Numbered from the stretch's first letter, positions 10,801-29,893 are shown. The stretch is 34,993 nt of DNA from an uncultured Thermoplasmata archaeon (GCA_964407905.1 CAYOXJ010000001.1:25752-60744); one strand, 5' to 3'. Program-made: numbers and translations. Notes: generated by a model from the letters alone, not told the origin.

Positions 10801-11686
10801 CGCATACCACGGCCGGAAGAAGCACTGCGAAGTCTGCCCGACGATCCGCACGATAAAGACCCAGCAGGCGGCACACGAAGTGGTTCCAAGGATAGGTCCA
10901 ATGGGCGAGACTGTTGGGTGGCTGGATCTGTACAGTTTTCCATTGTTGGATTCCGAGACGGGCGAACTCAAGGGCGTCATCGAGTATGTAAGAGACGCGA
11001 CCGACAGAAAGCGGTACGAGGACGCACTCAAACGCGCAAACGAGAAGCTGCAGCTCCTCGGCAGCGTTACGAGGCATGACGCTCTCAACCAATTATCGGT
11101 CCTCGCCGGATGGCTTGAGATTGCTAGAGGAGCGCCAGGGAACGACACGGTCATGGAATACTTGGATAAGATGAAGGGGGCGGTCGACAGCATCAGAAAC
11201 CAGCTGGAGTTCACGGCGGACTATGAGAAGATGGGATTGAACGAGCCTGCCTGGGTAGACGCTGAGGACGCATTTCGGCGGGGGGTATCGGGCCTCGGGT
11301 TCGAGGGAGTAACAGTGATCTGCAAGCTTGGCGGTCTCGAGGTATTCGCCGACCCGATGTTGGACAAGGTCTTCCACAACCTTCTGGACAACTCCCTGAG
11401 ACACGGCGAGAAGGTGAGTGAGATCAAGGTGCACTTCAAGGAGTCCAAGTCCGGCCTCTCGATCATCTACGAAGACAACGGAATCGGGATACCAGACAAG
11501 GAGAAGAAGCTCATCTTCCATCCTGGACGGGGGAAGCACACTGGCTACGGCCTTTTCATGGTGAACTCGATCCTCGGCATTACTGGTCTGTCGGCCGAGG
11601 AGACAGGCACGCCCGGAGAAGGAGCGCGGTTCGAGGTTCATGTCCCACCAGGCAAGTACAAGGTGGCGGCCGAGGACAAGTCCTGA
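7838..11686 (+). CDS. Hybrid sensor histidine kinase: N-terminal receiver domain, about six PAS domains, one GAF domain, HisKA-like and HATPase_c domains
   Basis: 1282 aa. The REC domain has VLLVDHD...AIVADYAMAEMNG...FTGKG. Repeated PAS-type blocks follow coiled linkers (ESERRFREM, SDQRFRMLAENAQD, SEARYRAVFENTG, and others). A GAF-like region is present (VSRVYIFEY...ILAMPL). The H-box is TRHDALNQL (His at 11075-11077). ATPase motifs are HNLLDNSLRHG, YEDNGIGIP and GYGLFMV. Confidence 0.85.
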   Translation: MINVLLVDHDPPILELTQFFLERDGRFKVDTATSARSALDKMARKTYDAIVADYAMAEMNGLELLKLLRNQGNDIPFVLFTGKGREDVAIEALNCGADYYLQKGGDPKSQFAELAHVIFQSVSQRTAVEELRESERRFREMLQNIRHIAVLLDARGRITFCNDYFLSVTGWESDEVMGGDWFDLFISPEQRADMRKYFDILVGGGEVPLDLGHENEIATRKGEKLLISWDSTILRDRKNNIIGTASIGVDMTQSRLRQEAEKQLRETTSQLEAIFKSYPDLLFQLTPDGTIVGYRAGRMQDLYVPPEQFLGKRIASVLPSDASKVVVDAVERVVRTGSLTSCSYSLVLQDGQEHFYEARLLPVSEAKILAIVREITEIRKKQEELRKSDQRFRMLAENAQDLIFRYRYLPERGFEYVSPSATAITGYTPEEHYADPELGTKIVHPDDRPILEALMRPPITSAGSVMLRWIRKDGRVLWTEMRYTPVLDKDGTLVAIDGMSRDISDRKLAEQMMQQNIRNMATLLDSLPGYAFLKDSRSVYVTANERFCRAVGCPKEEIPGKTDYDLFSRQMAEKFRSDDQRVLSSGGPIYVGEEDMIEGDRHITVVTRKVPMRSDTDDVVGIIGLGFDITERKHWEDELRKRLEYENLLAKISADAVRVGHLGVFLNESLGMMGELMDVSRVYIFEYNDAQKTFSNTYEWVSSGVKSERATLQNMPVSRFPLWMEKMLRNEIIVFDDIDDIRSEVDRERLVPQGIKSILAMPLYLSNGTMYGFMGIEECKRKRKWSEEDANILRAFSRIMTDVVERKAMESAISESEARYRAVFENTGTAIAIFEEDMTISMINDEFTRLSGYRKEEIVGRKWTSFVAKEDLARLKQYHQLRRKDSASAPASYEFHYVDREGNMRLIQATVSMIPGTTRSIGSFVDVTELKKAERALLESGRFLGSVFGSIQDGISILDRDMNIIQVNSAMEKWYSHKMPLVGKKCYDAYHGRKKHCEVCPTIRTIKTQQAAHEVVPRIGPMGETVGWLDLYSFPLLDSETGELKGVIEYVRDATDRKRYEDALKRANEKLQLLGSVTRHDALNQLSVLAGWLEIARGAPGNDTVMEYLDKMKGAVDSIRNQLEFTADYEKMGLNEPAWVDAEDAFRRGVSGLGFEGVTVICKLGGLEVFADPMLDKVFHNLLDNSLRHGEKVSEIKVHFKESKSGLSIIYEDNGIGIPDKEKKLIFHPGRGKHTGYGLFMVNSILGITGLSAEETGTPGEGARFEVHVPPGKYKVAAEDKS

Positions 11687-14871: not shown

Positions 14872-15348
14872 CTAGATGAACTCGGCCTCTATCTTCCTCA
14901 GAATCTTGGGCAGGGCTTTGGAGACCTCAGGCGTGAGATTCTCGCTGACGTTCGTGACGTCCTCTGCCTCTATTGCGAGGAAGACCACCTCCTTTGGCAT
15001 CTGCTCGGGGATGAGCCTCCTGCCAAGCGCAAGCGCAGTTGCCATGTTTATTCCATGAGGAGAGGACCCGTGAATAGCCTTTTCGAAATCCTTCTCATCC
15101 AGCACGTAGAGCTCACCCGGCCTTCCCTGCTTCGTCTGAATAGCATCTATGATAATGACCCTGTCATATCCTCTGACCACGTCGAGGAGTTCCAGGCCAC
15201 TTGCCGCGAGTTCCTCCACGTTGACCCCGGGAATCTCCTTGTCCCTCAGCCTTCTGGCAACATGGATTCCCACGCCGTCGTCAGATAGGATCGGATTGCC
15301 AACTCCAAGCACTAGGGTCTTCACAGATGTCCGTAGATCATTGGCCAT
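14872..15348 (-). CDS. Hydrogenase maturation endopeptidase (HyaD/HybD/FrhD family)
   Basis: 158 aa. The N-terminus LVLGVGNPILSDDGVGIHVA, the later IIIDA, and the His in GSSPHG are typical of Ni-dependent C-terminal processing proteases. It is the last gene of the mvh cluster. Confidence 0.85.
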   Translation of the reverse strand: MANDLRTSVKTLVLGVGNPILSDDGVGIHVARRLRDKEIPGVNVEELAASGLELLDVVRGYDRVIIIDAIQTKQGRPGELYVLDEKDFEKAIHGSSPHGINMATALALGRRLIPEQMPKEVVFLAIEAEDVTNVSENLTPEVSKALPKILRKIEAEFI

Positions 15349-15412: not shown

Positions 15413-16927
15413 TCAGAAGTTTCTCTGGGCAGTGAGGAGCGAGCCGTCCTTCCGCCTCACGTTGACCTCTAGCGCGGGAGCACCGTTCAAAGCGTGCGTG
15501 CCACACGAGTTGCACGGGTCGTAGCACCTGAAGGCCATCTCGACCTTGTTCAGAAGGCCGGGCGAGATTTCGCCGTTCTTGATCAGAGCCTTCGCTGCCT
15601 GTCTCACGCTCGTGTTTGTCGCAGCGTAGTTGTTGGTCGTCGCCACGATCATGTTAATCTTTGTGCACAGTCCGTTCTTGTCCGCTGCGTAGTGGTGAAT
15701 CAGGGTGCCCCTCGGTGCCTCGCATATGCCCACGCCCTCCTTTGGCTCCTTGAAGGGTCCTCTGATGTCGTCGCTGGTGATGCTCCTGTCGCTCGCGAGT
15801 TCGAGCATCCTCTCGGTCGCATATTGGAGCTCGATCACGCGCGCCCAGTGGAACGCGAGCGTGTGATGGACTGGACCCGTGACTCCGAGGTCCTTCATCG
15901 TCTTCTTGAAGATCTCGTACTCAGCCTGCGCCAGCGGGGTCGTGTACCCCGTGCAGACGTTTATCCTGCCCAGCGGACCAACTCTGTATATGCCGCTGGA
16001 GGCGCCGTCCACGAATCCTTTCCAGCCAACCTTCTTCAGGTATGGCATCTTCATGTAGGTCCAGGGCTCAACATGCTCGGCGATGACGTCCAAGTACTCG
16101 CTGGGCTTAAACTTCACGACCTCCTTGCCAGCCTGATCGACAACGCGTATGTCTCCGTCGTAGAAGTTGGTCTTGTTGTTCTTGTCGACCATGCCCATGT
16201 AGTAGGTCTCGAGGTAGTAGGCATCCTTGTTGAGCACGAAGCCCAGATAGTCCTTGTTGCCCAGCACCACGTCGTGGAACAGCTTGATGGTGAACTTGCC
16301 GAACTCGACGCAGGACTTCGCCATGTCCTCCATCTTCGCGCGCTCCTCCTCACTTATTTGCTTCGAGACGCCTCCGGGCAGGCCGAACACTGGGTGCGTT
16401 GCACGGCCGCCGACGATCTCCTGCACCTTCTGGCCGTAGGACCTGTGCTTGATGACCTCGGCACCTATCGGCACGCCCACGGCATCGACCACGCCCAGAA
16501 CGTTCCTCTTGTTCGAGGGCGCCGACGGGCCGAGCACGAAGTCAGGCGCAGCGAGGGCGTAGAAGTGGGCGATGTGGCTGTGGGTGTACTGCCCCATGTA
16601 GAACAGCTCCCTGAGCTTCTTTGCGGTCTCCGTTGGCGTTGCGTCGAACACCGCGTCCAGCGCCTTCGTCGATGCGATGTGATGTGCGGCTGGACAGACA
16701 CCGCAGAGCCTGTTCGTCAGCACGGGCAACTCCATCACGTGTCTGCCTATACAGAACCTCTCGAATCCCCTCAGCTCTGGGATCTGCAGGTACGCATTCT
16801 CGACGTTCCCTGCATCGTCCAGGAATATCTCGATCTTGCCATGTCCCTCTAGCCTCGTGATGGGGTCAATGGTTATCTTCCTCTCCTTCGTCTTCACTGG
16901 TGTGTCGTTGATAATTGGTCCAGCCAT
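15413..16927 (-). CDS. mvhA: [NiFe] hydrogenase large subunit, Mvh/Vhu-like (group 3c by context)
   Basis: 504 aa. It has RLEGHGKIEI and the N-terminal Ni-Fe ligand motif RLCGVCPAAHH. The C-terminal ligand motif DPCNSCGTH is followed by a 26-aa tail (ALNGAPALEV...), as expected for a protease-cleaved extension. Confidence 0.9.
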   Translation of the reverse strand: MAGPIINDTPVKTKERKITIDPITRLEGHGKIEIFLDDAGNVENAYLQIPELRGFERFCIGRHVMELPVLTNRLCGVCPAAHHIASTKALDAVFDATPTETAKKLRELFYMGQYTHSHIAHFYALAAPDFVLGPSAPSNKRNVLGVVDAVGVPIGAEVIKHRSYGQKVQEIVGGRATHPVFGLPGGVSKQISEEERAKMEDMAKSCVEFGKFTIKLFHDVVLGNKDYLGFVLNKDAYYLETYYMGMVDKNNKTNFYDGDIRVVDQAGKEVVKFKPSEYLDVIAEHVEPWTYMKMPYLKKVGWKGFVDGASSGIYRVGPLGRINVCTGYTTPLAQAEYEIFKKTMKDLGVTGPVHHTLAFHWARVIELQYATERMLELASDRSITSDDIRGPFKEPKEGVGICEAPRGTLIHHYAADKNGLCTKINMIVATTNNYAATNTSVRQAAKALIKNGEISPGLLNKVEMAFRCYDPCNSCGTHALNGAPALEVNVRRKDGSLLTAQRNF

Positions 16928-16931
16928 GTGA

Positions 16932-17948
16932 TCACCCCTTCCTTTTCTTCTTCTCGGTCACAGCCCTCTTCAGCGGGGACTTGGGTAGTGTGAAAGCGTA
17001 GAAGGTCCCAAGCGGGTCTTTGACCTGCATCATCATCTCCATGATCTGTTCCTCACTTAGCTTTGACTCCGAATCCGTGATGTTGAGGAGCGACGACAGT
17101 GCGCTCAGCATGCTAGCGCCCTGGTCGGTCACCGCCTTCGTCGGGCCCATGCAGCCTCTGCACGGCATATTCGCGTTCGGGCACATCGCGCCGCAGCCAG
17201 CCCGCGTCGCCGGGCCGATGCATATTATGCCCTGATCGAGCAAGCACTTCTTCGGGTCGGGCTTGATCTCGTAGGCCTGGTAGATCTTCTCAATCCTCCT
17301 GCCTTTCTCGACCCGCTCCCTCTTGCACTCGTCGCAGAGGGTCTTGTCCGAAGCGATGACCGTCCCCTTCGGCGGAAGAGGCGCTCCCTTCGTCACGTGC
17401 TGTGCCACCGCATCCACGGCCATGGCGATCAGGTTGACCGTGGGCGGGCAACCTGGCATGAAGTAATCGACGTCGACCACCTCGTCGAGCGTCTTGACTG
17501 TGTCGTAGAACTCGGGCAGTTCCAGCTCCCCCTCGGGAACCTTCAGATGCGACTGCGGGGTCACGAAACCTGGATTGTCGGTCGACACGGTATTCTTGTA
17601 GACCGTCTCGAAGACTTCCTTTCTGTTCGTCACGTTCGCTAGCCCGGGCGTCCCGCCGTAGCACGCGCACGAGCCGAAGGCAATCATGACAGCAGACTTC
17701 TCGCGCAGAATCTTGGCCACGTGCTCGTTTTCGGAGTTGCGAATCGCGCCATTGTAGAAGCTCACGGTTATGGACTTGTCCGGCATTGCCTCGATTTCCT
17801 TCAGCTTGCCGTCGAACCCGATCGGCCAGAACACGACCTCTGCGATCGCGTGGACGTCCAGGATCCTCGCATCGATGTCCAAGAGCGCGACGTCGCATCC
17901 TCCGCACCCCGCGCCCCAGTACTGTGCGATCTTGATCTTGTCTGCCAT
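16932..17948 (-). CDS. mvhG: [NiFe] hydrogenase small (Fe-S) subunit, MvhG-like
   Basis: 338 aa. It has the proximal-cluster motif YWGAGCGGCDVALLD, then GSCACYGG and MPGCPP. C-terminal Cys clusters are also present (CDECKRE, CIGPATRAGCGAMCPNANMPCRGC). Confidence 0.85.
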   Translation of the reverse strand: MADKIKIAQYWGAGCGGCDVALLDIDARILDVHAIAEVVFWPIGFDGKLKEIEAMPDKSITVSFYNGAIRNSENEHVAKILREKSAVMIAFGSCACYGGTPGLANVTNRKEVFETVYKNTVSTDNPGFVTPQSHLKVPEGELELPEFYDTVKTLDEVVDVDYFMPGCPPTVNLIAMAVDAVAQHVTKGAPLPPKGTVIASDKTLCDECKRERVEKGRRIEKIYQAYEIKPDPKKCLLDQGIICIGPATRAGCGAMCPNANMPCRGCMGPTKAVTDQGASMLSALSSLLNITDSESKLSEEQIMEMMMQVKDPLGTFYAFTLPKSPLKRAVTEKKKRKG

Positions 17949-18342: not shown

Positions 18343-18803
18343 TCACCACCTACCATGGGGGACGGTCCAAGTTCCTTAATCGTGTTGGTGAAGGAGATGA
18401 TGGTCTTCTGGAACTTCTCGCCCTCGCCTGCTGATACCCATTCCAGGCGCAGCCTGTCAGGGTCGAATCCGAACTGCTGTATGAGCATCTTCAGCAGCGC
18501 CATCCTCCTGCGGGTCCTGTAGTTGCCGCCTATGTAGTGGCAGTCCGCGGGATGGCAGCCTGCAACGAGGATTCCATCGGCCCCCCTGTTGAACGCCCTC
18601 AGGACGAACTCGGGGTCCACTCTTGCGGAGCACATTACCCTGATCACCCTGAAGTAGGGGGGCATCTGCAGCCTGCTGACCCCAGCAAGGTCGGCGCCTG
18701 CGTACGAGCACCAGTTGCAACAGAACACGAGAATCTTGGGCTCGAACTGCCCGCCTGTCTCCTCGCCCTGGTGCGCGGAAGTGTGCGTCGCCTCGCTGCT
18801 CAT
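18339..18803 (-). CDS. mvhD: MvhD-type [2Fe-2S] iron-sulfur protein (copy d, stand-alone domain)
   Basis: The track ORF extends to 19037 inside hdrA, so I take ATG 18803 (MSSEATHT...), which overlaps the hdrA-d stop (ATGA), giving 154 aa. It has FCCNWCSYAGADLAG, VMCSARVDP and GCHPADCHY, the MvhD/FlpD signature. Confidence 0.85.
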   Translation of the reverse strand: MSSEATHTSAHQGEETGGQFEPKILVFCCNWCSYAGADLAGVSRLQMPPYFRVIRVMCSARVDPEFVLRAFNRGADGILVAGCHPADCHYIGGNYRTRRRMALLKMLIQQFGFDPDRLRLEWVSAGEGEKFQKTIISFTNTIKELGPSPMVGGE

Positions 18804-21800
18804 TGCTTCGCCTCCTGCTTCGGGTTTTCCCCCACGAGCGCAGCATCGATCATCGCGTAGATCTGCTCGTCCCTGTACCCCTTCTGTGTCAGCGCGCCAG
18901 ACGGGCATGCGCCTACACAGGCTCCGCAGCCCTTGCAGAGGCCGACGTTGATCTCGACAAGCTTCTTGTCTTTGTTCTTCTTGTCGGGTACGATCTCCAT
19001 GGCCTTGTACTCGCAGATGGGAACGCATATGCCACATCCGTCGCAGAAGGTCTCGTCGACGCTCGCGACGATGCCCTCAGCCTCGAGCGTCGTCTTCGAC
19101 AGCACGGTGGTCGCCCTCGAGACAGCAGCCAACGCCTGCGCGATGCTCTCGTCGACGAACTTCGGGCCATGCGCGAGACCCGCGAGGTATATGCCCTCCG
19201 TGGCGAAGTCAACCGGCCTGAGCTTCATGTGCGCCTCGAGGAAGAATCCCTCCTTTGTCTGGGGAACTTTGCACATGGGCGCCAGCTCACCGGCATCCTC
19301 CTGAGGCCTCGTGCCTGCAGCGAGGACCAGGTGGTCCGGCTTCAGGACGATCTCCTTGCCAGTGTCCTCGTCGGTCACGCTGACCTCGAGCTTTCCAGCC
19401 TTATCCTCGACACGTGGCTTGACCTTGTCATCAAATCGGACGAATATCACTCCTTTCGAGCCGGCTTCCTTGTAGTACTTCTCTCTGAATCCGTAGGTCC
19501 TGATGTCTCTGTAGAGCACGAAGACCTTCGCGTTGGGGTCCCTCTCCTTGATCTTCATCGCCGCGGTCATCGTGCCAGTGCAGCAGACGCGGGAGCAGTT
19601 CGGATTCTTATCCTCCCTCGAGCCTACGCACTGTATGAACACGTACTCCTTGCCCTTGGCCTCGCCCTTCGCAAGCTTGTCCTTGAGCTCGAGCAGAGTC
19701 ATGACTTTCTTGTTCTTGCCGTAGAGATACTCGCCCTCGGGCTTGTGCTCCTCGCCGCCTATGGCGACGATCACGATACCATGTTCGATCTCCTCGCCCG
19801 TCGTGAGCTTGGTCTTGAAGTTGCCAACATAGCCGTCCAGCGACTTGACCTTCGAGCCAAGGTAGACAGTTATATTCGGGCTCGAGGTGACCTTCTTGTC
19901 GAGCTCTCTCACGTACGCTGCGGGGTCGTCGCCCGATGGCAGGTAGTGAAGCTTCTTTGCATTTCCTCCGAGCTCCTTCTCTCTCTCGACCAGGTGCACT
20001 TTAAAGCCCTGCTTCGCGAGCTCGAGTGCTGCGACCATGCCAGAAACCCCTCCGCCGACTACCAATGCCTGCTGGTTGACGTTCATTGTCAGATTCTGCA
20101 GCGGCTCGAGTAGCCTCGCCTTCGCGACCGCCATCCTGACTAGGTCCTTCGCCTTCTTGGTGGCGGCCTTCGGCTCATGCATGTGTATCCACGAGCACTG
20201 GTCCCTGATGTTTGCCATCTCGAAAAGATAGGCATTGAGGCCCGCTTCTTTGATGGTGTTCTGGAACAGTGGCTCGTGAGTCCTTGGCGTGCAGCTCGCC
20301 ACCACCACCCTGTTCAGCTTCAGCTCCTTGACCTTCTCCTTGATCTTCTCCTGCGTGTCCTGGGAACAGGTGTATAGGTTCTGCTCAGCGTAAGCCACGT
20401 TGGGCAACGTCTTCGCATACTCCATGACCTCTGGAACCTTCACGACGCCGCCGATGTTGATCCCGCAGTGGCAGACGAAGACGCCTATCCTGGGCTCCTG
20501 GCCCTCGACACTCGTCTCGGGCGGGTATTCCTTCTTTGTGACAAGGGTGTTCCTCGCCCCAGCGATCTCGGTGCCGGCCTTCGCAGCTGCACCCGACGCC
20601 TCCGCGACTGTCATCGGGATGTCCTTTGGTGAAGAGAACGCGCCGCTGACGAATACCCCCGGCCTGGTGGTCTCGACCGGCGCGAACACGCTCGTCTGTG
20701 CGAACCCGTCGTCGTTCAGCTTGAACTCCATGATCTTGCTCAGGTTCTCGGCGTCCGCAGGTGGCCTGAGTCCAACGGCCAGGACGACGAGGTTGAACTC
20801 CTCCTCCTTCGGTTCGCCGTTCTCGACGTACTTGAGCTTCAGGTTCTTCGTCCTCGAATCCTCCGAGACGGCAGCGATCCTCGACCTGACGAACTTGATT
20901 CCATACTCGTTCTGTGCTCTGTTGTAGTACTCGTCGAACTCCTTGCCGAAAGCCCTCATGTCCATGAAGAATATTGAGGGCTTGATGTCACCGCCATGCT
21001 CCTTGGCGATGACCGCCTCCTTTATGGAGTACATGCAGCATACGCTCGAGCAGTATTCGTTTCCGCAGTGCTCGTCCCTGGATCCGACGCACTGGATGAA
21101 CGCGACCTTCTCCGGTATGTCGCCATCGGAAGGCCTCAGAACAGTGCCCATGTACGGTCCCGTGGCCGAGAGCATCCTCTCGAACTCGATGCTCGTGACG
21201 ACGTTCTTGTACACGCCATACCCGTACTCTGTCTTCAGCCGCGCATTGAACTCGTCGAAGCCTGGGGAGACGATGACAGAGCCGACCTTGATCTCAAGCA
21301 CCTTCTCCTTCTGGTCGTATTCCACAGCCTTCGCCTTGCACTCCTCAGCACATATCCCGCAGCCGATGCACTTGTCCGGGTCGATCGAGTAGACCAACGG
21401 AACGGCCTGCGGGTATCTCACGTAGATCGCCTTCCTCACCTTGGTGTTCTCGTCGAACTCGTTGGACGCTTCGATCGGACATTTCTGCGCACAGCTGCCG
21501 CAGCCAGTACACTTCTTCGGGTCCACTCTGAAGGCATGCTGCTTCACTATCACGCTGAAGTTGCCCGCCTCACCGTCGAGCTTCGCGATCTCTGCGTTTG
21601 TTATCAGCTCGATGTTGTGGTGCCTGCCCGTCGCGACCAGCTTCGGAGCCATGATGCACATGGCGCAGTCGTTGGTGGGGAAGGTCTTGTCGAGCTGTGC
21701 CATCACTCCGCCTATGCTCGGCTGCTTCTCGACCAGGTACACCCTGTATCCGGAGTCAGCAAGATCGAGAGCGGACTGCATCCCTGAGATGCCGCCGCCG

Positions 21801-21838
21801 ACGACCATGACCGCTCCGATCTTGTCGGTCGCTGCCAT
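18800..21838 (-). CDS. hdrA: Double-module HdrA-like flavoprotein, copy d (about 1012 aa)
   Basis: N-module (aa 1 to ~430): VVGGGISGM, DKTFPTNDCAMC, an inserted 2x[4Fe-4S] ferredoxin (CTGCGSCAQKCP, CIGCGICAEEC) and CVGSRD..YCSSVCC. C-module (aa ~450 to end): HdrA N-domain RIGVFVCHCGINIGG..ASCTPRTH, a second VVGGGVSGM, CVGSRED..CSRVCC, and a C-terminal 2x[4Fe-4S] (CDGCGICVPIC, CKGCGACVGACP). The start is ATG 21838 or GTG 21841, both overlapping the upstream TGA. Confidence 0.9.
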   Translation of the reverse strand: MAATDKIGAVMVVGGGISGMQSALDLADSGYRVYLVEKQPSIGGVMAQLDKTFPTNDCAMCIMAPKLVATGRHHNIELITNAEIAKLDGEAGNFSVIVKQHAFRVDPKKCTGCGSCAQKCPIEASNEFDENTKVRKAIYVRYPQAVPLVYSIDPDKCIGCGICAEECKAKAVEYDQKEKVLEIKVGSVIVSPGFDEFNARLKTEYGYGVYKNVVTSIEFERMLSATGPYMGTVLRPSDGDIPEKVAFIQCVGSRDEHCGNEYCSSVCCMYSIKEAVIAKEHGGDIKPSIFFMDMRAFGKEFDEYYNRAQNEYGIKFVRSRIAAVSEDSRTKNLKLKYVENGEPKEEEFNLVVLAVGLRPPADAENLSKIMEFKLNDDGFAQTSVFAPVETTRPGVFVSGAFSSPKDIPMTVAEASGAAAKAGTEIAGARNTLVTKKEYPPETSVEGQEPRIGVFVCHCGINIGGVVKVPEVMEYAKTLPNVAYAEQNLYTCSQDTQEKIKEKVKELKLNRVVVASCTPRTHEPLFQNTIKEAGLNAYLFEMANIRDQCSWIHMHEPKAATKKAKDLVRMAVAKARLLEPLQNLTMNVNQQALVVGGGVSGMVAALELAKQGFKVHLVEREKELGGNAKKLHYLPSGDDPAAYVRELDKKVTSSPNITVYLGSKVKSLDGYVGNFKTKLTTGEEIEHGIVIVAIGGEEHKPEGEYLYGKNKKVMTLLELKDKLAKGEAKGKEYVFIQCVGSREDKNPNCSRVCCTGTMTAAMKIKERDPNAKVFVLYRDIRTYGFREKYYKEAGSKGVIFVRFDDKVKPRVEDKAGKLEVSVTDEDTGKEIVLKPDHLVLAAGTRPQEDAGELAPMCKVPQTKEGFFLEAHMKLRPVDFATEGIYLAGLAHGPKFVDESIAQALAAVSRATTVLSKTTLEAEGIVASVDETFCDGCGICVPICEYKAMEIVPDKKNKDKKLVEINVGLCKGCGACVGACPSGALTQKGYRDEQIYAMIDAALVGENPKQEAKQ

Positions 21839-22602
21839 CACTGCTCACCCCCGATCTCTATCGTTCGGTATGTCGGTGTGAACCCCTCTGGGTGGTCCAT
21901 GGCTATGAGATTCTTCTGCCTCAGGACGACTATGTGCTCCAGCACTCGATCCGTTGGAACATTCATCTTCTTCGAGAGGTCCTTCACGGACATGTTGTTG
22001 TTCTTCGTAAGCAGAAGGATCAATGATCTCTCGAATTCCTGCTTTGTGGCATTGTATATGATGTCCAGAAGCTTCTCCTTGCCTAGTTTGTCCCCGTAGA
22101 CATTTCCCTCTTCGACAATCTTCAGCTCATTGCTCACAAGGGCCCTCAATCTGAAATCGCTGAGGGCATTGCGTACTGCCACCAAGCCATTCATTATCTT
22201 GCCCGCGTTGCTTGGGCCCAGTTTCTCGAGTTCTCCTGTGAAGTCTCTGATGAGATCGGCGAATCGTTGTCCTTCAGAAGCACTCACCCACTCAAGCCGC
22301 ACTCGCCGTGGGTCAGAACCTGCGAGCTCAAGGATCCTCTTTGCGAGGCCAATCTTGCAATCAGCCTGGAGGTTGCCGGTCAGATAATGGCAGTCTCCGG
22401 GATGGCATCCTCCGACGAGGACACCATCTGCGCCCTGAATCAGAGCTTCAACTATGAGGACAGGATCAACCCTGCCTGAGCACATCACGCGAATTGTCCT
22501 GATGTTCGGCGGGTACTGGAACCTCGAGACTCCAGCCAGATCCGCACCTGCATAGCTGCACCAGTTGCAGAGAAAGCCCACAATGCGTGGTTCGAAGGCC
22601 AT
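21838..22602 (-). CDS. mvhD: MvhD-type [2Fe-2S] protein fused to a ~115-aa winged-helix-like C-terminal extension (copy c)
   Basis: 254 aa. The N-terminus has FLCNWCSYAGADLAG, VMCSGRVDP and GCHPGDCHY. The C-terminus has MSVKDLSKKMNVPTDRVLEHIVVLRQKNLIAMD, an HTH/wing-like pattern. Its start abuts the hdrA-c stop. Confidence 0.85.
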   Translation of the reverse strand: MAFEPRIVGFLCNWCSYAGADLAGVSRFQYPPNIRTIRVMCSGRVDPVLIVEALIQGADGVLVGGCHPGDCHYLTGNLQADCKIGLAKRILELAGSDPRRVRLEWVSASEGQRFADLIRDFTGELEKLGPSNAGKIMNGLVAVRNALSDFRLRALVSNELKIVEEGNVYGDKLGKEKLLDIIYNATKQEFERSLILLLTKNNNMSVKDLSKKMNVPTDRVLEHIVVLRQKNLIAMDHPEGFTPTYRTIEIGGEQ

Positions 22603-25600
22603 CTAGACCCCCTCCTTCACGCCATTGATTTCCTTGACAGCGTTTGCTACCTGAGCAGTGAGTTGCTCATCGGTGAAACCGGGCAGCCGTATGGCTCTCT
22701 CGGGACATGATGCAACACAGGTGCCACAGCCCTTGCACAGGACGATGTTAGTCTTCGCAATACCCTCTGCATTCTTTTCCATTGCACCGTATGGGCAGAT
22801 TGTTATGCAAGTGCCGCAGCCCGTGCATTTCTCTTCGTTCACCTGGGAGACTATTCCCTCGACCTCGTAGGTGTCTTTCGAGAGAATAGTTGAGGCACGT
22901 GCAACTGCGCCGGATGCCTGCGCGATGCATTCCTCTATGAACTTGGGCGAGTGAGCCAGTCCGCAGAGATAGATGCCGTCCGTGGCAAAATCCACGGGAC
23001 GTAGTTTCATGTGTGCCTCAAGGAAGAACTTGTCCTTGCTAAGCGGTACCTTGAGAATCTTTGCGAGAGCCTCATTGTCGGGGTTGGGAAGAGTCGCAGC
23101 CGCAAGCATCAGTATGTCCGGTCTCACGACAACGTGCTCGCCCAGGAAATGCTCAAACACCTCTACCCGCAACTTCCCCTTTTCCATTGTCACGATGGGC
23201 AAGGAGTCATCATAGTATCTGACAAACATTATTCCCTTCTCTGCGGCCTCCGAGTAGAAATCCTCGCGGAATCCATATGTGCGGACATCCTTGTGCAGGA
23301 TGTACACGTTCGCGGCCGGGTTCAGCTCTTTCAGCTTGAGTGCATTCTTGATCGTCTCGGTACAGCATACACGGGAACAGTAGGGCCGCTCTCTTGTTCT
23401 GCAGCCGACGCATTGAATCATCACGACGTTCCTCATCTTCTTGGCTGCGGCCGAGTCCTTGGCGAGGAGTTCTTCGAACTCCAATTGAGTCTTGACCCCG
23501 TCATGCTTACCATACAGGTACTCTTCCGGCTTGTATTCCACTCCGCCAGTTGCAACTACGACTACGCCAGAATCTATCTTCTCTTCCTTTCCATTGACGG
23601 TGACAGTGGCAACGAAGTTGCCGACATAGCCGCTCAATTCCCTGAGAAGCGCATTCGTATGAACATGAATCCTCTCGTTGCCTTTCACACTCTCGATCAT
23701 CTTCTTCAGTTCTCTCTGCGTATCTTCTCCGGTCAATGTGTAGCGTATGCGTCTGAGGATTCCACCGAGCTCCTTCTCTTTCTCGATTATGTGCACTTCA
23801 TAGCCTTCTTCCGCAAGTTGAACTGCGCAAGTCATTCCCGACAGCCCGCCGCCGAGTATGAGCGCGCTCTTCTTCACGGGAACAGTGATGCGGGGCAGTT
23901 GCTCGAGCAATCTCGCTTTTGCCACGGCCATCCGGACGAGATCCTTGGCCTTCTCCGTTGCCTTGTCCGGCTCGTGGGTGTGAACCCATGAGCACTGGTC
24001 TCGTATGTTCGCCATTTCGAAGAGATGCATGTTGAGCCCCGCTTGGCGAACAGTGTTCTGGAACAGTGGTGCATGGGTTCTCGGAGTACACGACGCTACG
24101 ATCACACGGTTCAGGTTGTGCTCCTTTATCCTCTGCTTTATCTTTTCGTTGGTGTCCTGGGAGCATGTGTATAGGTTCTCCTCGGCGTAGACGACGTTTG
24201 GGAGCTTTCTTGCATACTCTGCGACCTCTGGGACGCGCACAACACCGCCTATGTTGATGCCACAGTGACAGACGAACACGCCAATACGAGGTTCCTGCCC
24301 AACAGTGTCCGTCTCGGGCGGGAAGACGCGCTCAGTCACGAGCGTTCCTCGCGCGCTCGAAATCAGAGATGATGCCTTCGCTGCTGCGCCGCTTGCCTGC
24401 GAGACTGAGTCAGGGATGTCCTTTGGCGCTGAAAATGCTCCGCAGACGTATATCCCCGGCACGTTTGTCTCCAGCGGGGAGAAAATGCTCGTGCTCGCGA
24501 AGCCGTATTTGTTGAGGTTGATGCCAAAAACACGGTTCATCCGATCCGAATCCTTGGGAGGCGATGTGCCAACGGAAAGGACCACCATGTCAAACTCTTC
24601 GCTCTTGAGGTCCTCGCCATCCAGGTACCAAACAGTCAGATTCTTCGTCGCTGGGTCTTCTTCCACTTTGGCGATGCGGTTGTTCTTGACGAACTTTATG
24701 CTGTGGGCCTCTTCCGCACGGATGTAGTATTCGTCAAATTCCTTTCCGAATGCCCGGATGTCAAGGAAGAATATGTAGGGCTTCAAGCCGGGCGTGTGCT
24801 CCTGTGCGATTATTGCCTCTTTTATTGCGAACATGCAACAGACAGAAGAGCAGTATGTATTTCCTATCTGCTTGTCGCGCGATCCTATGCACTGGATAAA
24901 CGCGATTTTCCGAGGGAGTTCTCCGTCGCTCGGCCTGAGGACGAGGCCACCATAAGGCCCGGTTGCCGACAGCATTCTCTCAAGGTCCAGAGAAGAGATC
25001 ACGTTCGGAAATCTGCCGTAGCCGTATTCGGGCTTGAGATTCAGATTGAACTCCTCATACCCTGGAGCGAGAACGATTGCGCCCACTCTCATCTCCACGA
25101 TTGTCTCCTTCTGAGAGTACTCTATCGCCTCGGCCTCACATTGGGTTGCACAGATTCCGCAGCCAATGCAGTGATCCTGATCGATCACATGCGTCGGCGG
25201 TATCGCCTGAGAGTATTTCACATAAATGGCCTTTCTGAGCTTCAGACCCTTGTTGTACTCATCCGGAACCTCTATTGGGCAGCGCTGCGTACAAACCCCA
25301 CAGCCGGTGCATTTGTCCTCCAGTACTCGTCTCGTGCGCCTTCTGATCGTTGCCCTGAAATCTCCCGGAGCCCCTTCGACCAACTCGACCTCGGCGTTTG
25401 ATATTATTTGGATGTTGTGATGTCTTCCCGTTTCCACAAGTTTGGGTGCCATAATGCACATGGCGCAGTCGTTCGTGGGGAAGGTCTTGTCGAGCTGCGC
25501 CATCGCGCCACCGATGTTTGGACTCCTGTCCACAAGATAGACTTTGAATCCCGAGTCAGCCAAGTCGAGAGATGCCTGCATACCAGCAATGCCACCGCCA

Positions 25601-25635
25601 ACTACGAGGACTGCACCGACAGGATTGTCCGTCAT
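22603..25635 (-). CDS. hdrA: Double-module HdrA-like flavoprotein, copy c (about 1010 aa)
   Basis: It has the same architecture as copy d: VVGGGIAGM, DKTFPTNDCAMC, CTGCGVCTQRCP/CIGCGICATQC, RIGVFVCHCGINIGG, ILGGGLSGM, CVGCRTRE..CSRVCC, CTGCGTCITICP/CKGCGTCVASCP. I prefer ATG 25635 because AGGAGG lies 8 nt upstream. The track's GTG 25644 abuts that Shine-Dalgarno sequence. Confidence 0.9.
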   Translation of the reverse strand: MTDNPVGAVLVVGGGIAGMQASLDLADSGFKVYLVDRSPNIGGAMAQLDKTFPTNDCAMCIMAPKLVETGRHHNIQIISNAEVELVEGAPGDFRATIRRRTRRVLEDKCTGCGVCTQRCPIEVPDEYNKGLKLRKAIYVKYSQAIPPTHVIDQDHCIGCGICATQCEAEAIEYSQKETIVEMRVGAIVLAPGYEEFNLNLKPEYGYGRFPNVISSLDLERMLSATGPYGGLVLRPSDGELPRKIAFIQCIGSRDKQIGNTYCSSVCCMFAIKEAIIAQEHTPGLKPYIFFLDIRAFGKEFDEYYIRAEEAHSIKFVKNNRIAKVEEDPATKNLTVWYLDGEDLKSEEFDMVVLSVGTSPPKDSDRMNRVFGINLNKYGFASTSIFSPLETNVPGIYVCGAFSAPKDIPDSVSQASGAAAKASSLISSARGTLVTERVFPPETDTVGQEPRIGVFVCHCGINIGGVVRVPEVAEYARKLPNVVYAEENLYTCSQDTNEKIKQRIKEHNLNRVIVASCTPRTHAPLFQNTVRQAGLNMHLFEMANIRDQCSWVHTHEPDKATEKAKDLVRMAVAKARLLEQLPRITVPVKKSALILGGGLSGMTCAVQLAEEGYEVHIIEKEKELGGILRRIRYTLTGEDTQRELKKMIESVKGNERIHVHTNALLRELSGYVGNFVATVTVNGKEEKIDSGVVVVATGGVEYKPEEYLYGKHDGVKTQLEFEELLAKDSAAAKKMRNVVMIQCVGCRTRERPYCSRVCCTETIKNALKLKELNPAANVYILHKDVRTYGFREDFYSEAAEKGIMFVRYYDDSLPIVTMEKGKLRVEVFEHFLGEHVVVRPDILMLAAATLPNPDNEALAKILKVPLSKDKFFLEAHMKLRPVDFATDGIYLCGLAHSPKFIEECIAQASGAVARASTILSKDTYEVEGIVSQVNEEKCTGCGTCITICPYGAMEKNAEGIAKTNIVLCKGCGTCVASCPERAIRLPGFTDEQLTAQVANAVKEINGVKEGV

Positions 25636-25636
25636 C

Positions 25637-26425
25637 TCACGCACCTCCTATCCCAAAGCTCTGTGCGCTCCGGTAGAGGGGCGTTGCGCCTTCTATGCGA
25701 GAGAGCCTCACCAAATCGCGATCCTTGAGCGTCACAATATGCTGCAAGATCTTTGTTGCGGGCAGATTCAGAGTTGCTGCAAGTTCTTTCACAGAAACTG
25801 GCCTATCAGATGCGGCGAGCAATATCTCTATTCGCGCAAATTCGTCATCCATTACTGAGTCGAGCAATGCATCCAGTTCCTCTTCGGGTATCTTCTTTCC
25901 GAAGACATTCCCCTTCTCGGAGAACTCGACATATTTGCCGAGCAGAGACCGAATCCTGACGTCTTCGACAACATTTTTCGCTGCGAACAGAAGCCTGAGT
26001 TTCTTGATGTCAGGATGTTCACCACTCACTGGACTTGGACCGAGCTCAGAGATCTGCTTTGTGAACTCCGTCATGAGCTTTGCAAAACGTTCTCCTTCTG
26101 ATGCACTCACCCATTCGAGCCTCAAGCGCTCCGGCTCGAAGCCGCATTTTGCCAGAAGTCTCCTGGCGACCTTCATGCGCTGCTGCGCGAAATAGTTGCC
26201 CTTGATGTAGTGGCAGTCGCCAATATGACATCCGCCAACAAACACACCGTCCGCGCCCTGAATGAACATTTCTAGGACGATGTCCGGGTCAACGCGTGCG
26301 CTGCACATGACCTTGACAATTCTTATTTCTGGCGGATATTGGTACCTGCTCACTCCAGCGAGATCCGCGCCAGCATAGCTGCACCAATTGCACATGAAAC
26401 CTATGAGTTTCGGTTCGAAGGGCAT
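25637..26425 (-). CDS. mvhD: MvhD-type [2Fe-2S] protein fused to a winged-helix-like C-terminal extension (copy b)
   Basis: 262 aa. It has FMCNWCSYAGADLAG, VMCSARVDP and GCHIGDCHY. The C-terminus has EKGNVFGKKI...VSVKELAATLNLPATKILQHIVTLKDRDLVRL. Confidence 0.85.
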   Translation of the reverse strand: MPFEPKLIGFMCNWCSYAGADLAGVSRYQYPPEIRIVKVMCSARVDPDIVLEMFIQGADGVFVGGCHIGDCHYIKGNYFAQQRMKVARRLLAKCGFEPERLRLEWVSASEGERFAKLMTEFTKQISELGPSPVSGEHPDIKKLRLLFAAKNVVEDVRIRSLLGKYVEFSEKGNVFGKKIPEEELDALLDSVMDDEFARIEILLAASDRPVSVKELAATLNLPATKILQHIVTLKDRDLVRLSRIEGATPLYRSAQSFGIGGA

Positions 26426-26702: not shown

Positions 26703-28576
26703 AGGACCACCTCTTTGATCCCCGCCAAACCTTCGACGATGAGTTGTTCATCTGTATAGTGCAGCATTGTGATGGCCTTCTCAGGACACCCTGCTCCGCA
26801 CGCACCACAGCCCTTGCATGCAGCCTTGATCACCTTTGCCTTCATACCTTTGGGACCGCGTTCCACCGTGATTGCCGAGTACGGGCAAAGCGTTGCACAG
26901 ATTCCGCACCCTACACACGAGTCTGTGTCCACATCTGAGGCAATTGCCTCAGCGAGAACGTAGCCTTTGCTGAGAGGTATCGCAGCCCTTGACGCCGCTG
27001 CGGCCGCCTGCGTCACACATTCCGTGATATCGGATGGACCTCTGCAAGTCCCGCAGACATAGATGCCGTCCGTCGCGAAGTCAACTGGTCTCAGCTTCAC
27101 ATGCGCCTCCAGGAAGAACCCTTCCTGGCCCAGGGGTACCTTGAGCTTCTGCGACAGCTCGCCGGCATCTGGCTGGGCGACCAATGGTGTCGACAGGATG
27201 ACCATGTCGACAGCCATCGTCCTCTCGAGCTTCAGGGTCTCGTGGAAGTAGCCCACTGTCAGCTGGTTTCCTTCCATGAAGACCTTGGGCGCGTTTTCCG
27301 GGATGTATCTGACGAACTTGATTCTCTTCTCCCTCGCCTTGTTGTAGGTCAGCTCGTGCTCGACGCCGTAGGCCATGACGTCCCTGTTGAACACGGTGAT
27401 TTCTATTTTCTCAGAAGGCCCGAGCTTGACCTCCTCAGCCCCAGCTTCCTCACCTCTCTCGCGTCCGCGCCTTCTGCGCCTGCGCTCAAGGATCTCCTCG
27501 GGGGCCTTCTGCTCGACAGGTATCTTCTCGACGACCGTGCCCTCCTTCTCCATCAGGCCGAGCATGTTCTCGTAGTTGTCCACTATGTTCATCGCGTTTT
27601 TGACAGCGACGTTGCAGCAGATTCTTGAGCAGTAGCTCTTGACCTGGCCCCTCGAGCCGACGCATTGAATGAATGCGACGTTCTTGAGCTTCGGGAGCGT
27701 CTTCTTCTTGCAGAGTATCTCGAACTCGGTCAGCGTGACGACGTTGGGGTATTGGTTGTATCCGTACAGGCCCTCAGGAACGAACTCGAGGGCACCCGTT
27801 GCGACTATGATTGTTCCGACCTTCGCCTTCGTGTCCTCTGCGCCCTTGGTTCCTATGACGATGTCGTAATTGCCGATGAACCCCTGAACCGCCTTGAGCG
27901 TGGAGTTCATGTAGAGCTTGATGTTCTTGTGCGCCCCGACCTCCTCGATGAGCGGCTTGATGGTCTCGGTTGCGCTCTTCTCTGTGACGTAGAGGTTGTT
28001 CAGATTCCTCACGAAGCCGCCAAGCTCGTTCTCTTTCTCGATCAGATGAACCGGAAATCCCATGTCTGCCAGAGACAACGCGGCAGTCATGCCAGATACC
28101 CCACCACCTATCACCAGTGCTGCGGCGGTCACATCGACTTTCTCCTCTTCCTGCGGCTCGAGCAGCCTCGCCCTGGCGACGCCCATCCTGATCAGATCCC
28201 TGGCCTTCTTGGTCGCCTTGTCCTTCTCCTTCATGTGCACCCAAGAGCACTGCTCGCGGATGTTGACGAATGTGAACAGATACTTGTTCAGGCCTGCGCT
28301 CTCACAGGTCGCCTGGAATAGCGGCGCGTGGGTTCTTGGAGTGCAGCTGGCCACTATCACCCTGTTCAGGTTGTGCTTCTTGATCCCTTCCCTTATGTCG
28401 TTCAGACCATCCTCGGCGCAAGTGTAAAGATTGTCAGTAGCGTAGACAACGTCAGGGAGCGTCTTCGCGTACTCCGCGACCGACGGAACATCGACAAATC
28501 CACCGATGTTCGAACCACAATGGCATACGAACACGCCGATTCTCGGCCCTTGCTTGCTCTCAGTCTTCTCAGCCAT
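26699..28576 (-). CDS. hdrA: HdrA-like flavoprotein, copy b C-module as a separate gene (625 aa)
   Basis: It starts MAEKTESKQGPRIGVFVCHCGSNIGG, the HdrA N-domain. It continues with ASCTPRTH, VIGGGVSGM, CVGSRGQVKSYCSRICC and a C-terminal CVGCGICATLCP/CKGCGACGAGCP. GGAGGGG lies about 10 nt upstream of the ATG. Confidence 0.9.
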   Translation of the reverse strand: MAEKTESKQGPRIGVFVCHCGSNIGGFVDVPSVAEYAKTLPDVVYATDNLYTCAEDGLNDIREGIKKHNLNRVIVASCTPRTHAPLFQATCESAGLNKYLFTFVNIREQCSWVHMKEKDKATKKARDLIRMGVARARLLEPQEEEKVDVTAAALVIGGGVSGMTAALSLADMGFPVHLIEKENELGGFVRNLNNLYVTEKSATETIKPLIEEVGAHKNIKLYMNSTLKAVQGFIGNYDIVIGTKGAEDTKAKVGTIIVATGALEFVPEGLYGYNQYPNVVTLTEFEILCKKKTLPKLKNVAFIQCVGSRGQVKSYCSRICCNVAVKNAMNIVDNYENMLGLMEKEGTVVEKIPVEQKAPEEILERRRRRRGRERGEEAGAEEVKLGPSEKIEITVFNRDVMAYGVEHELTYNKAREKRIKFVRYIPENAPKVFMEGNQLTVGYFHETLKLERTMAVDMVILSTPLVAQPDAGELSQKLKVPLGQEGFFLEAHVKLRPVDFATDGIYVCGTCRGPSDITECVTQAAAAASRAAIPLSKGYVLAEAIASDVDTDSCVGCGICATLCPYSAITVERGPKGMKAKVIKAACKGCGACGAGCPEKAITMLHYTDEQLIVEGLAGIKEVVL

Positions 28577-28582
28577 CTGAAA

Positions 28583-29893
28583 TCACGCCCCTCCCGCCTG
28601 GGCAGTGGCCTGTGCCATGACCTCAACCGCCTTTGCGGCAGCGCTCGAGCCCTGGGCGACGCTTTCTGGTATGTCCGCTGGTCCTGCGCAGTAGCCGGCC
28701 AAGTACATGCCGGGGACGACGGTCCTGCCGAAGTCAAGTATCCTGTCGGTTGATTCCAGGAATCCGAATTCGTCGGTCTTCAGTCCCAGGATCTTGGCAA
28801 GCTCCAATGTCTCCTTTCTCGGGACGAGAGTGGTCGCGAGGACTACCATGTCGAACTCCTCGGACTGTTGCCTCCCGCCCACGTCGAACACAACAATCGG
28901 GTTATGGGTTTCGGGGTTCTCCTGAACGGTAGCGTCTGAGTTGATGTATCTCACACCGTAGTCGCGCTTGGCCCTTTCGATGTACTCGTAGAATCCCTTG
29001 GCGCACGCTCGCATGTCCTTGTAGAAGATGGTCGACTCCATGTCGTCGTGGTGCTCGCGTGCCAACATTGACTCCTTGGTGGAGTGCATGCAGCACACCG
29101 AACAGCAGTACGGATGTCCAACCTGCGGGTTTCTCGAGCCCACGCACTGGATGAACGCCATCTTCATGGGTCTCTTCTTGTCTGATCTGCGCTCGATGTG
29201 TCCATGGGTCGGGCCCGCGGCATTGATCATCCGCTCGTATTCCATCGCCGTGAAGACGTTCGGGTACTTGCCGTACCCGTACTCCGTCGACGAGGAGGGG
29301 TCCCAGACGTCATAGCCAGTTGCGACTATTATCGCGCCGACCTCGATCTCCAGCATCTGGTCCTTCATCTCGTAGTCGATCGCCTCTCTCTTGCAGGCCT
29401 TCTTGCAGTTCCCGCACTTGCCCTTGGTGAACATGATGCAGTTCTCTTTGTCGATCGTCATGACTCTGGGCACTGCCTGCATGAAGGGCATGTATATCGC
29501 CTTCCTGTTGGCGAGCCCCATCTCGAACTCGTTCGGGACCTTGCTCGGGCACTTCTCGAGGCATTCTCCGCAGCCAGTGCATTTCGTCTCGTCCACGAAC
29601 CTGGCCTTCTTAAGCACCTTGACTCTGAATCCGCCAGCCTTCCCCTCGACTCCGACCGCCTCCGCGTATGTGATGACGTTTGTGTTTGGGTGGCTGAAGC
29701 AGTCCGCCATCTTCGGTGCCAGAATGCATATCGAACAGTCGTTCGTCGGGAACGTCTTGTCCAGCTGTGCCATTCGTCCGCCGATGCTGGGCGTCTTCTC
29801 GATTAAGTGGACTATTATTCCCTTGTCAGCGAGGTCAAGGGCCGCCTGTATCCCAGCGACTCCTCCCCCGATCACCATCACAGACCTCTCCAT
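28583..29893 (-). CDS. hdrA: HdrA-like flavoprotein, copy b N-module as a separate gene (436 aa)
   Basis: VIGGGVAGIQAALDLADKG, DKTFPTNDCSICILAPKM, an inserted ferredoxin-like region (CTGCGECLEKCP, then the divergent CIMFTKGKCGNCKKAC) and CVGSRNPQVGHPYCCSVCC. It ends at the position that is the inter-module linker in the fused copies. AAGGAGG lies upstream of the ATG. Confidence 0.9.
   Translation of the reverse strand: MERSVMVIGGGVAGIQAALDLADKGIIVHLIEKTPSIGGRMAQLDKTFPTNDCSICILAPKMADCFSHPNTNVITYAEAVGVEGKAGGFRVKVLKKARFVDETKCTGCGECLEKCPSKVPNEFEMGLANRKAIYMPFMQAVPRVMTIDKENCIMFTKGKCGNCKKACKREAIDYEMKDQMLEIEVGAIIVATGYDVWDPSSSTEYGYGKYPNVFTAMEYERMINAAGPTHGHIERRSDKKRPMKMAFIQCVGSRNPQVGHPYCCSVCCMHSTKESMLAREHHDDMESTIFYKDMRACAKGFYEYIERAKRDYGVRYINSDATVQENPETHNPIVVFDVGGRQQSEEFDMVVLATTLVPRKETLELAKILGLKTDEFGFLESTDRILDFGRTVVPGMYLAGYCAGPADIPESVAQGSSAAAKAVEVMAQATAQAGGA

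Follow-up and report, generated by a model that had tools for sequence, protein, structure and literature searches.

Fused HdrA proteins of an uncultured Thermoplasmata archaeon: probable intramolecular pseudo-dimers encoded in a multi-cassette Hdr/Mvh gene array

A stretch of 34,993 nucleotides (nt) from an uncultured Thermoplasmata archaeon (GCA_964407905.1, CAYOXJ010000001.1:25752-60744; the whole of this stretch is called the window below) carries an array of Hdr and Mvh genes with four copies of HdrA, designated a, b, c and d. Copies d, c and a each encode a single chain of ~1010 amino acids (aa) in which the elements of HdrA are distributed over two unequal flavin modules. We consider it highly probable that these proteins are intramolecular HdrA pseudo-dimers of the same type as BamE, the HdrA of MetFV-Hdr complexes and the HdrA of Methanomassiliicoccales, working by the mechanism proposed below. 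The architecture and the pseudo-dimer idea are already published from comparative genomics (2014, 2022 and 2024), and for BamE there is structural evidence (2026 preprint). The window adds archaeal examples from an uncultured Thermoplasmata lineage and not a new principle.

The open reading frame (ORF) of copy d extends over 18800-21841 if it begins at a GTG codon; from the ATG at 21838 it encodes 1012 aa and is identical to a database protein of this length (P0001). In a phmmer search of PDB sequences, copy d matched HdrA of M. thermolithotrophicus (5odc_A) with E = 8.7e-218 in three collinear pieces. When the halves are considered separately, aa 11-427 correspond to 5odc_A 146-566 (E = 1e-136, half searched alone), and aa 450-683 and 684-1000 correspond to 5odc_A 2-235 and 318-648, respectively (E = 3e-135). 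The inserted ferredoxin of HdrA (5odc_A 236-317) is thus cleanly deleted from module 2. A first-pass annotation, made from the sequence of the window alone, had described the first ~430 aa of copies d, c and a as containing the inserted ferredoxin and lacking the N-domain as well as the C-terminal ferredoxin, and the second ~560 aa as consisting of the N-domain, a second flavin domain and a C-terminal ferredoxin. ORFs, phmmer matches to 5odc_A and the cysteine alignment agree with this description for all three copies, and the linker, sought around 20490-20550 in copy d, is placed by the alignment at nt ~20498-20560.

For a cysteine map, 5odc_A residues 2-648 were rebuilt from the alignments and aligned with the eight modules present in the window, so that each cluster cysteine could be placed on the canonical protein, a check that the first-pass annotation had proposed. 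In copy d, the ligands of the inserted ferredoxin are Cys111/114/117/121 and Cys158/161/164/168, and those of the flavin-domain cluster of module 1 are Cys251/264/268/269. The N-domain has five cysteines (Cys457/459/492/517/549), the flavin-domain cluster of module 2 has Cys738/749/753/754, and the C-terminal ferredoxin has eight cysteines (Cys933-Cys979). This division is the same in a, b, c and d. According to the alignment with 5odc_A, module 1 always keeps Cys194/Cys197 (HdrA numbering; Cys59 and Cys62 in copy d), the eight cysteines of the inserted ferredoxin and the four of the flavin-domain cluster, and has neither N-domain nor C-terminal ferredoxin. Module 2 always keeps the five N-domain, four flavin-cluster and eight C-terminal ferredoxin cysteines; no cysteine at the 194/197 positions and no inserted ferredoxin were found in it. 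The earlier reading that module 2 is devoid of the FPTNDC cysteine and of the inserted ferredoxin therefore stands.

Each chain contains two cluster motifs in the inserted ferredoxin, one in flavin domain 1, one in the N-domain, one in flavin domain 2 and two in the C-terminal ferredoxin, i.e. seven. There are also two GGGxxG dinucleotide-binding motifs per chain, and the thioredoxin reductase (TrxR)-like flavin adenine dinucleotide (FAD) domain with its Cx12Cx3CC-type site is present twice. From these motifs, seven [4Fe-4S] sites and two FAD sites are predicted for a chain of ~1010 aa. The 28 ligands for the seven clusters, the fifth N-domain cysteine and the Cys59/Cys62 pair are invariant in an alignment of 48 homologues with 69% mean column identity.

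In the HdrA dimer, the N-domain cluster of a protomer is completed by Cys197 of its partner, and the tandem or fused HdrAs of anaerobic methanotrophic archaea (ANME) as well as Moorella HdrA show complementarity of Cys197 and N-domain; for them, a heterodimer with broken two-fold symmetry has been proposed, which in the fusions would form within one chain (Chadwick et al. 2022, PMC9012536). In the first-pass annotation, a donor cysteine in the FPTxDC region had been expected. This region is indeed restricted to module 1, but the cysteine of FPTNDC itself is Cys194, and the donor Cys197 is the second cysteine of NDCxxC. The suggestion of a covalent pseudo-heterodimer with broken symmetry finds support in the complementary domains and ligands of the four copies, in the work of Chadwick et al. 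and in the structure of BamE, and the statement that fused HdrA paralogues had been noted in comparative genomics of ANME, so that the fold may not be new, was accurate (PMC9012536). The statement that such proteins are biochemically uncharacterised does not hold at the family level. The Moorella complex has been purified, class II benzoyl-CoA reductase (BCRII) with BamE has been purified and its structure solved, and Methanomassiliicoccales use a fused HdrA.

Copies c (ORF 22603-25644, ATG at 25635) and a are 58% and 56% identical to d, respectively, and have the same architecture; ~18 aa of copy a, including the first GGGxxG motif, are lost at the window end. The first-pass annotation listed d, c and a only and omitted a fourth, split copy. 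Copy b represents the same two-module design as two genes (b_M1 and b_M2), between which lie a stop codon and 6 nt. The product b_M1 possesses the Cys pair and the flavin-domain cluster together with an inserted ferredoxin whose second motif is atypical (Cx7CxxCxxxC, nt 29393-29440). The product b_M2 possesses the N-domain, flavin domain 2 and the C-terminal ferredoxin, and its flavin domain carries a strongly charged insert of 54 aa (nt 27401-27562, ...ERRRRRRGRERGEE...). The b pair is split in every related locus examined, and at least 15 related loci share this conserved separation, so both halves exist as separate partner polypeptides. In some relatives (e.g., L013:4122-6812) the b_M1 orthologue has ~896 aa and contains an NfnB/GltD-like domain (Fer4_20 + Pyr_redox_2), thereby resembling HdrA9-11 of ANME-1 and bacterial HdrL-type proteins.

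The whole chain of copy d was modelled with AlphaFold2 using the 48-sequence alignment, with a mean predicted local distance difference test score (pLDDT) of 83 and a predicted template modelling score (pTM) of 0.84. The confidence was lowest for residues 51-59, 461-464 and 870-880, loops of the model that would be expected to touch cofactors. In a Foldseek comparison of the model with the PDB, 8rwn_A (HdrA core without N- and C-terminal domains) was matched with a TM-score (TMt) of 0.95 and 49% identity, and the whole protomers 5odh_A and 5odc_A with a TMt of 0.76 and 39% identity over ~656 columns. Because of these alignment lengths and identities, the match to 8rwn_A would fit module 1, and the match to 5odc_A would fit module 2 as a protomer minus the inserted ferredoxin. 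Neither the phmmer search of PDB sequences nor Foldseek against the PDB (to 2026-04-08; the copies searched did not include the BamE entries 29QY, 29RC and 29RN) retrieved a fused HdrA; only canonical HdrA of ~650 aa and sHdrA (6TJR) were found.

The two modules differ in their relationships. The identity of the flavin cores is 46-61% among modules 1 and 41-52% among modules 2, and only 28-34% between module 1 and module 2 of one protein. Compared with canonical HdrA, it is 47-53% for module 1 and 34-41% for module 2. This pattern indicates that one old HdrA duplication, followed by complementary loss of parts, probably preceded the expansion into a, b, c and d, and that the second flavin domain is likely to be the more diverged, or degenerate, one. 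Furthermore, the lysine at the position of HdrA Lys409 is invariant in module 1 of the 48 homologues (Lys274 in copy d). In module 2, this position is occupied by Thr759 in copy d and by Thr or Ser across d-type proteins, by Ala in copy a and by Ala or Thr across a-type proteins.

A structure of this type has been described for BamE, the "fused HdrA dimer" of Geobacter metallireducens BCRII, BamBCDEFGHI (cryo-electron microscopy; 2026 preprint, 10.64898/2026.04.10.717634). According to this preprint, the N-terminal flavin domain of BamE holds the bifurcating FAD with Lys280 at N5, and the second FAD (with Gln768) is non-bifurcating and mainly structural. The protein has seven clusters, E1-E7, and its Cys59-Cys62 pair is 3.4 Å from cluster E3 and 13.3 Å from the bifurcating FAD.

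By analogy with BamE and canonical HdrA, modules 1 and 2 of the window proteins would pack like the HdrA homodimer. Module 1 should bind FAD, judging from its dinucleotide-binding motif, and the N-domain cluster of module 2 would dock on the Cys pair of module 1, beside this FAD, which would be the single bifurcating flavin. Electrons would pass from the MvhAG hydrogenase via MvhD and the ferredoxin at the C-terminus of module 2 to the FAD of module 1. The high-potential electron would then be transferred via the module 1 cluster to an HdrC/HdrB unit, here probably the MvhD-HdrC-HdrB fusion (by gene adjacency only). The low-potential electron would take the route via the Cys pair, the N-domain cluster of module 2 and the inserted ferredoxin of module 1 to ferredoxin. 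The flavin of module 2 would be mainly structural. Copy d, which is linked to mvhDGA, is the orthologue of Methanomassiliicoccales HdrA, and copies a, b and c represent paralogous cassettes that each have a separate MvhD-family adaptor.

Three points weigh against this assignment. First, module 2 keeps a lysine at the Lys409 position in c, b and most other subfamilies, which makes an exclusively structural role of the second flavin less secure in these proteins. Second, the collinearity of BamE and copy d is deduced only from published residue numbers (Cys59/Cys62 identical, Lys274/Lys280, 759/Gln768). Third, the text of Chadwick et al. puts the N-domain half first in ANME HdrA3/4 and describes Moorella HdrA as 'much like' them, whereas the Cys-pair half comes first in every fused HdrA retrieved here, including the bacterial MetFV-linked ones, and, by residue numbering, also in BamE. 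Either the ANME proteins differ in order or the text is imprecise; the comparison with ANME was made by description only.

The retained lysine is also an argument for both flavins being catalytic, at least in c- and b-type proteins, with the FAD of module 2 as an entry site oxidising NAD(P)H or F420H2 or as a second bifurcation site. In addition, the GxGxxG motif, the C-terminal flavin-fold motif and the adjacent [4Fe-4S] ligands of module 2 are all invariant, and the Moorella MetFV-HdrABC-MvhD complex, which uses NADH, is listed with 2 FAD in HdrA (Buckel and Thauer 2018, PMC5861303). Nevertheless, we regard this alternative as unlikely, for module 2 has no Cys pair, no inserted ferredoxin and no N-domain cluster directed to it, i.e. 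no low-potential branch, and its flavin core is the more diverged one. Even less probable appears pairing of the modules between chains to a domain-swapped symmetric dimer of fusions. As the split pair b shows, association of the halves does not require a covalent connection, and the BCRII complex is dimeric overall (10.64898/2026.04.10.717634). BamE, on the other hand, has been described as a fused HdrA dimer contained in a single protomer (same preprint), the single-chain model of copy d with its pTM of 0.84 corresponds to a confident intrachain arrangement, and the length of the ~20-aa linker is conserved across homologues. That the long ORFs result from mis-assembly, from read-through of adjacent hdrA genes or from decaying duplicates, as the two genes of copy b might hint, is ruled out by more than 100 like-sized proteins, 77 independent loci, the invariant cysteines and the conserved split of b.

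The HdrA genes are part of a tightly packed array in which, from position ~14.9 kb up to the window end, every gene is on the minus strand (Table 1). An FlpD/MvhD gene follows each HdrA cassette, and the putative HdrBC-type partner is the MvhD-HdrC-HdrB fusion after copy a. In this fusion, MvhD is joined to a di-cluster ferredoxin resembling HdrC and to an HdrB-like unit that contains two CCG domains; the synteny of the fusion is kept in related Thermoplasmata metagenome-assembled genomes (MAGs). The array thus has two BamF-like winged-helix MvhDs, one HdrCB-fused MvhD and one short MvhD beside MvhAG. The winged-helix (ArsR-like) C-terminal domain of both long MvhDs comprises ~120 aa, and their N-terminal motif is F(L/M)CNWC, compared with FCCNWC in the short MvhD and in the MvhD-HdrCB fusion. 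The start codon of the short MvhD gene shares ATGA with the stop codon of copy d, and homologues (150-154 aa) have the same 4-nt overlap. The small ORF upstream of b_M1 contains an internally duplicated Cys-rich motif, ELSCKDxKCSPCTYPNCQRF, with only a faint match to Pfam 'FeS'; it is found at the same position in related MAGs with 53-79% identity.

Table 1. Elements of copy d and genes of the Hdr/Mvh array, with positions in the window.
Feature	Position (nt)	Strand	Basis or remark
Copy d module 1, TrxR-like flavin domain 1, aa 11-100 + 183-427	20561-21811	minus	matches 5odc_A 146-566
Copy d Cys59-x-x-Cys62 (= HdrA Cys194/Cys197)	21656-21667	minus	alignment
Copy d inserted 2x[4Fe-4S] ferredoxin, aa 101-182	21296-21541	minus	alignment and Pfam Fer4
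Copy d linker, aa 428-448, IAGARNTLVTKKEYPPETSVEGQ	20498-20560	minus	aligns with neither 5odc 146-566 nor 2-130
Copy d module 2 N-domain, aa 449-576	20114-20497	minus	65% identity to 5odc_A 2-130
Copy d flavin domain 2, aa 592-915, GGGVSG	19097-20068	minus	alignment to 5odc_A
Copy d C-terminal 2x[4Fe-4S] ferredoxin, aa 916-1000	18842-19096	minus	matches 5odc_A 567-648
Fused HdrA copy a	32009-34993	minus	first in transcription order; N-terminus cut by window end
MvhD-HdrC-HdrB triple fusion, 533 aa	30411-32012	minus	Pfam FlpD, Fer4_8/17, 2x CCG
Small Cys-rich ORF, 125 aa	30015-30392	minus	between MvhD-HdrCB and b_M1
Split HdrA b_M1, 436 aa	28583-29893	minus	Pfam and 5odc_A alignment
Split HdrA b_M2, 625 aa	26699-28576	minus	Pfam and 5odc_A alignment
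Long MvhD with C-terminal winged helix, 262 aa	25637-26425	minus	Pfam FlpD and HTH_20; between b and c
Fused HdrA copy c	22603-25635	minus	ORF, Pfam, alignment
Long MvhD with C-terminal winged helix, 254 aa	21838-22602	minus	Pfam FlpD and HTH; between c and d
Fused HdrA copy d, 1012 aa	18800-21838	minus	ORF and phmmer to 5odc_A
Short MvhD, 154 aa	18339-18803	minus	Pfam FlpD, E 3.6e-55
mvhG, [NiFe] hydrogenase small subunit	16932-17948	minus	Pfam Oxidored_q6; downstream of copy d
mvhA, [NiFe] hydrogenase large subunit	15413-16927	minus	Pfam NiFeSe_Hases; downstream of copy d
HycI-type maturation protease	14872-15348	minus	Pfam

Copy d is 61-87% identical to more than 100 database proteins with lengths of 1000-1016 aa, and those of them with a name come from Thermoplasmata/Methanomassiliicoccales MAGs. 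In a scan of loci with one genome per species, full-length collinear matches to copy d were present in 77 loci from independent assemblies, including closed chromosomes. The identity was 79-87% in Thermoplasmata MAGs, ~60% in Methanomassiliicoccales MAGs, 59% in one Bathyarchaeia MAG and 50-55% in bacteria, among them the cultured Desulforamulus aeronauticus; the bacterial groups were Syntrophales, Syntrophobacterales, Desulfobacteraceae and Bacillota. At least 15 Thermoplasmata loci have the order a, MvhD-HdrCB, small ORF, b_M1, b_M2, long MvhD, d, MvhD, MvhG, MvhA, HycI, and similar arrays can be found in Methanomassiliicoccales MAGs. Among the close relatives compared, the cassette of HdrA_c with a second long MvhD is present in the window and in L005 (RBG_19FT_COMBO_56_21); in most of the others (loci L002, L007 and L012-L031 compared), b_M2 and the long MvhD are followed directly by HdrA_d. 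Members of the lineage thus differ in how many cassettes they have.

In one bacterial locus (L067), a fused HdrA gene is located beside genes for a 251-aa MvhD, metV, metF and an hdrCB fusion; this HdrA is 54% identical to copy d and collinear over residues 21-1010. The locus is a Moorella-type MetFV-Hdr cluster. The long MvhDs of the window share 43-47% full-length identity with the bacterial 251-aa MvhDs adjoining fused HdrA. Larger HdrA relatives of ~1480-1500 aa, in which an NfnB/GltD-like flavoprotein unit is inserted in module 1 of the two-module scaffold, occur beside the ~1010-aa fused HdrA (L068, 4782-9233 and 14450-18898; L067, 3759-8237). The one in L067 has 1492 aa, and D. aeronauticus has two such genes of ~1480-1500 aa within 15 kb. 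A bam cluster was sought among the bacterial loci and was not found in L067 or L076: L067 has metFV-hdrCB-mvhD and an HdrL-like neighbour instead of bamBC, and L076 has no neighbour of the size of AOR.

Three further genes lie outside the array. A gene for a 1282-aa hybrid sensor with an N-terminal receiver, many PAS domains, GAF and a C-terminal HATPase (7838-11686, plus strand) is located upstream of the array, on the strand opposite to the Hdr/Mvh genes. A 131-aa protein with the C-terminal nickel-binding domain of NikR is encoded at 1692-2087 (plus strand), ~13 kb from the [NiFe] hydrogenase genes. An MttB-family methyltransferase of 476 aa is encoded at 3159-4589 (minus strand; Pfam MTTB, E = 9e-68); its gene is uninterrupted, with no in-frame stop, so it would seem to belong to the non-pyrrolysine members of this family.

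A fused HdrA may be seen as a bifurcating dimer locked in an asymmetric form that has just one complete path, and such proteins are therefore useful for determining the flavin and the clusters that bifurcation requires. To the known examples the window adds that the hydrogenase-linked HdrA of the Methanomassiliicoccales type has the Cys-pair-first design, that a long MvhD-winged-helix adaptor accompanies fused HdrA in archaea as well as in bacteria, and that Thermoplasmata keep a conserved array of three or four cassettes that includes a natural split version. The latter (copy b) could provide a genetic control for what the covalent link contributes. Only the multi-cassette array with distinct MvhD adaptors may have been undescribed so far. 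It is tempting to ask whether the four cassettes assemble as one multi-flavin supercomplex with several bifurcation/confurcation sites and inputs beyond H2. We find this doubtful; if true, it would be an archaeal counterpart of the two-module coupling of BCRII, possibly in a non-methanogen with a disulfide or another acceptor.

Among known systems, HdrA of Methanomassiliicoccales was noticed early as being longer than other HdrAs, with two predicted FAD sites and a location beside mvhDGA (Borrel et al. 2014, PMC4153887). Copy d shares this mvhDGA context and has 60-65% full-length identity to the ~1002-aa MAG proteins of this group. The window belongs to another Thermoplasmata lineage (the nearest relatives are Thermoplasmata MAGs with 79-87% identity) and has four HdrA cassettes in one array. 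Moorella-type MetFV-Hdr, compared here by homologues of its gene cluster, is similar in that the bacterial metFV-linked HdrAs are collinear with copy d (54%). There are no metFV genes in the window, and the electron donor of the copy d system is presumably H2, not NADH as in the purified Moorella complex. HdrA-HdrA fusions have been reported in many archaeal phyla (2024 archaeal fusion survey, PMC11237513). Fused HdrA3/HdrA4 and the tandem HdrA5/6 and HdrA12/13 of ANME (PMC9012536) have the same complementarity of Cys197 and N-domain (plus C-terminal ferredoxin) as the window proteins, and the split pair b is the counterpart of the 'tandem' class of Chadwick et al.

BamE shares with copy d the Cys59/Cys62 pair, the inserted ferredoxin in module 1, the C-terminal ferredoxin and seven cluster motifs; by residue numbering, Lys274 of copy d would correspond to Lys280 and Thr759 to Gln768. 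Copies c and b differ from BamE in keeping the lysine in module 2. The partners are alike, too. BamF is an MvhD homologue that exceeds the usual length by more than 100 aa and has a winged helix and Sec19, and BamD is an HdrBC-like fusion (the BamED protomer was refined locally; 10.64898/2026.04.10.717634); they resemble the long MvhD-winged-helix proteins and the MvhD-HdrCB fusion of the window, respectively. The host of the window system is an archaeon, and its input is the [NiFe] Mvh hydrogenase, not BamGHI; BamBC tungsten modules are not encoded in the window.

Finally, all six cofactor-binding elements of canonical HdrA (5ODC, 8RVU, 7BKB) are present in the window proteins with conserved ligands, with identities to 5odc_A of 47-53% for the flavin core of module 1, 61-66% for the N-domain and 41-44% for the C-terminal ferredoxin. 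Canonical HdrA, a protein of ~650 aa with a single set of these elements, assembles into a symmetric homodimer that holds 12 clusters and 2 bifurcating FAD. The fused copies cannot be classified as canonical HdrA, as the four domains are divided over two modules of a ~1010-aa chain. Instead, d, c and a follow the order of a fused pseudo-dimer, i.e. a Cys-pair module with inserted ferredoxin, N-domain, second flavin module and C-terminal ferredoxin, in which two unequal modules divide the elements between them, with 7 clusters and probably one bifurcating FAD.

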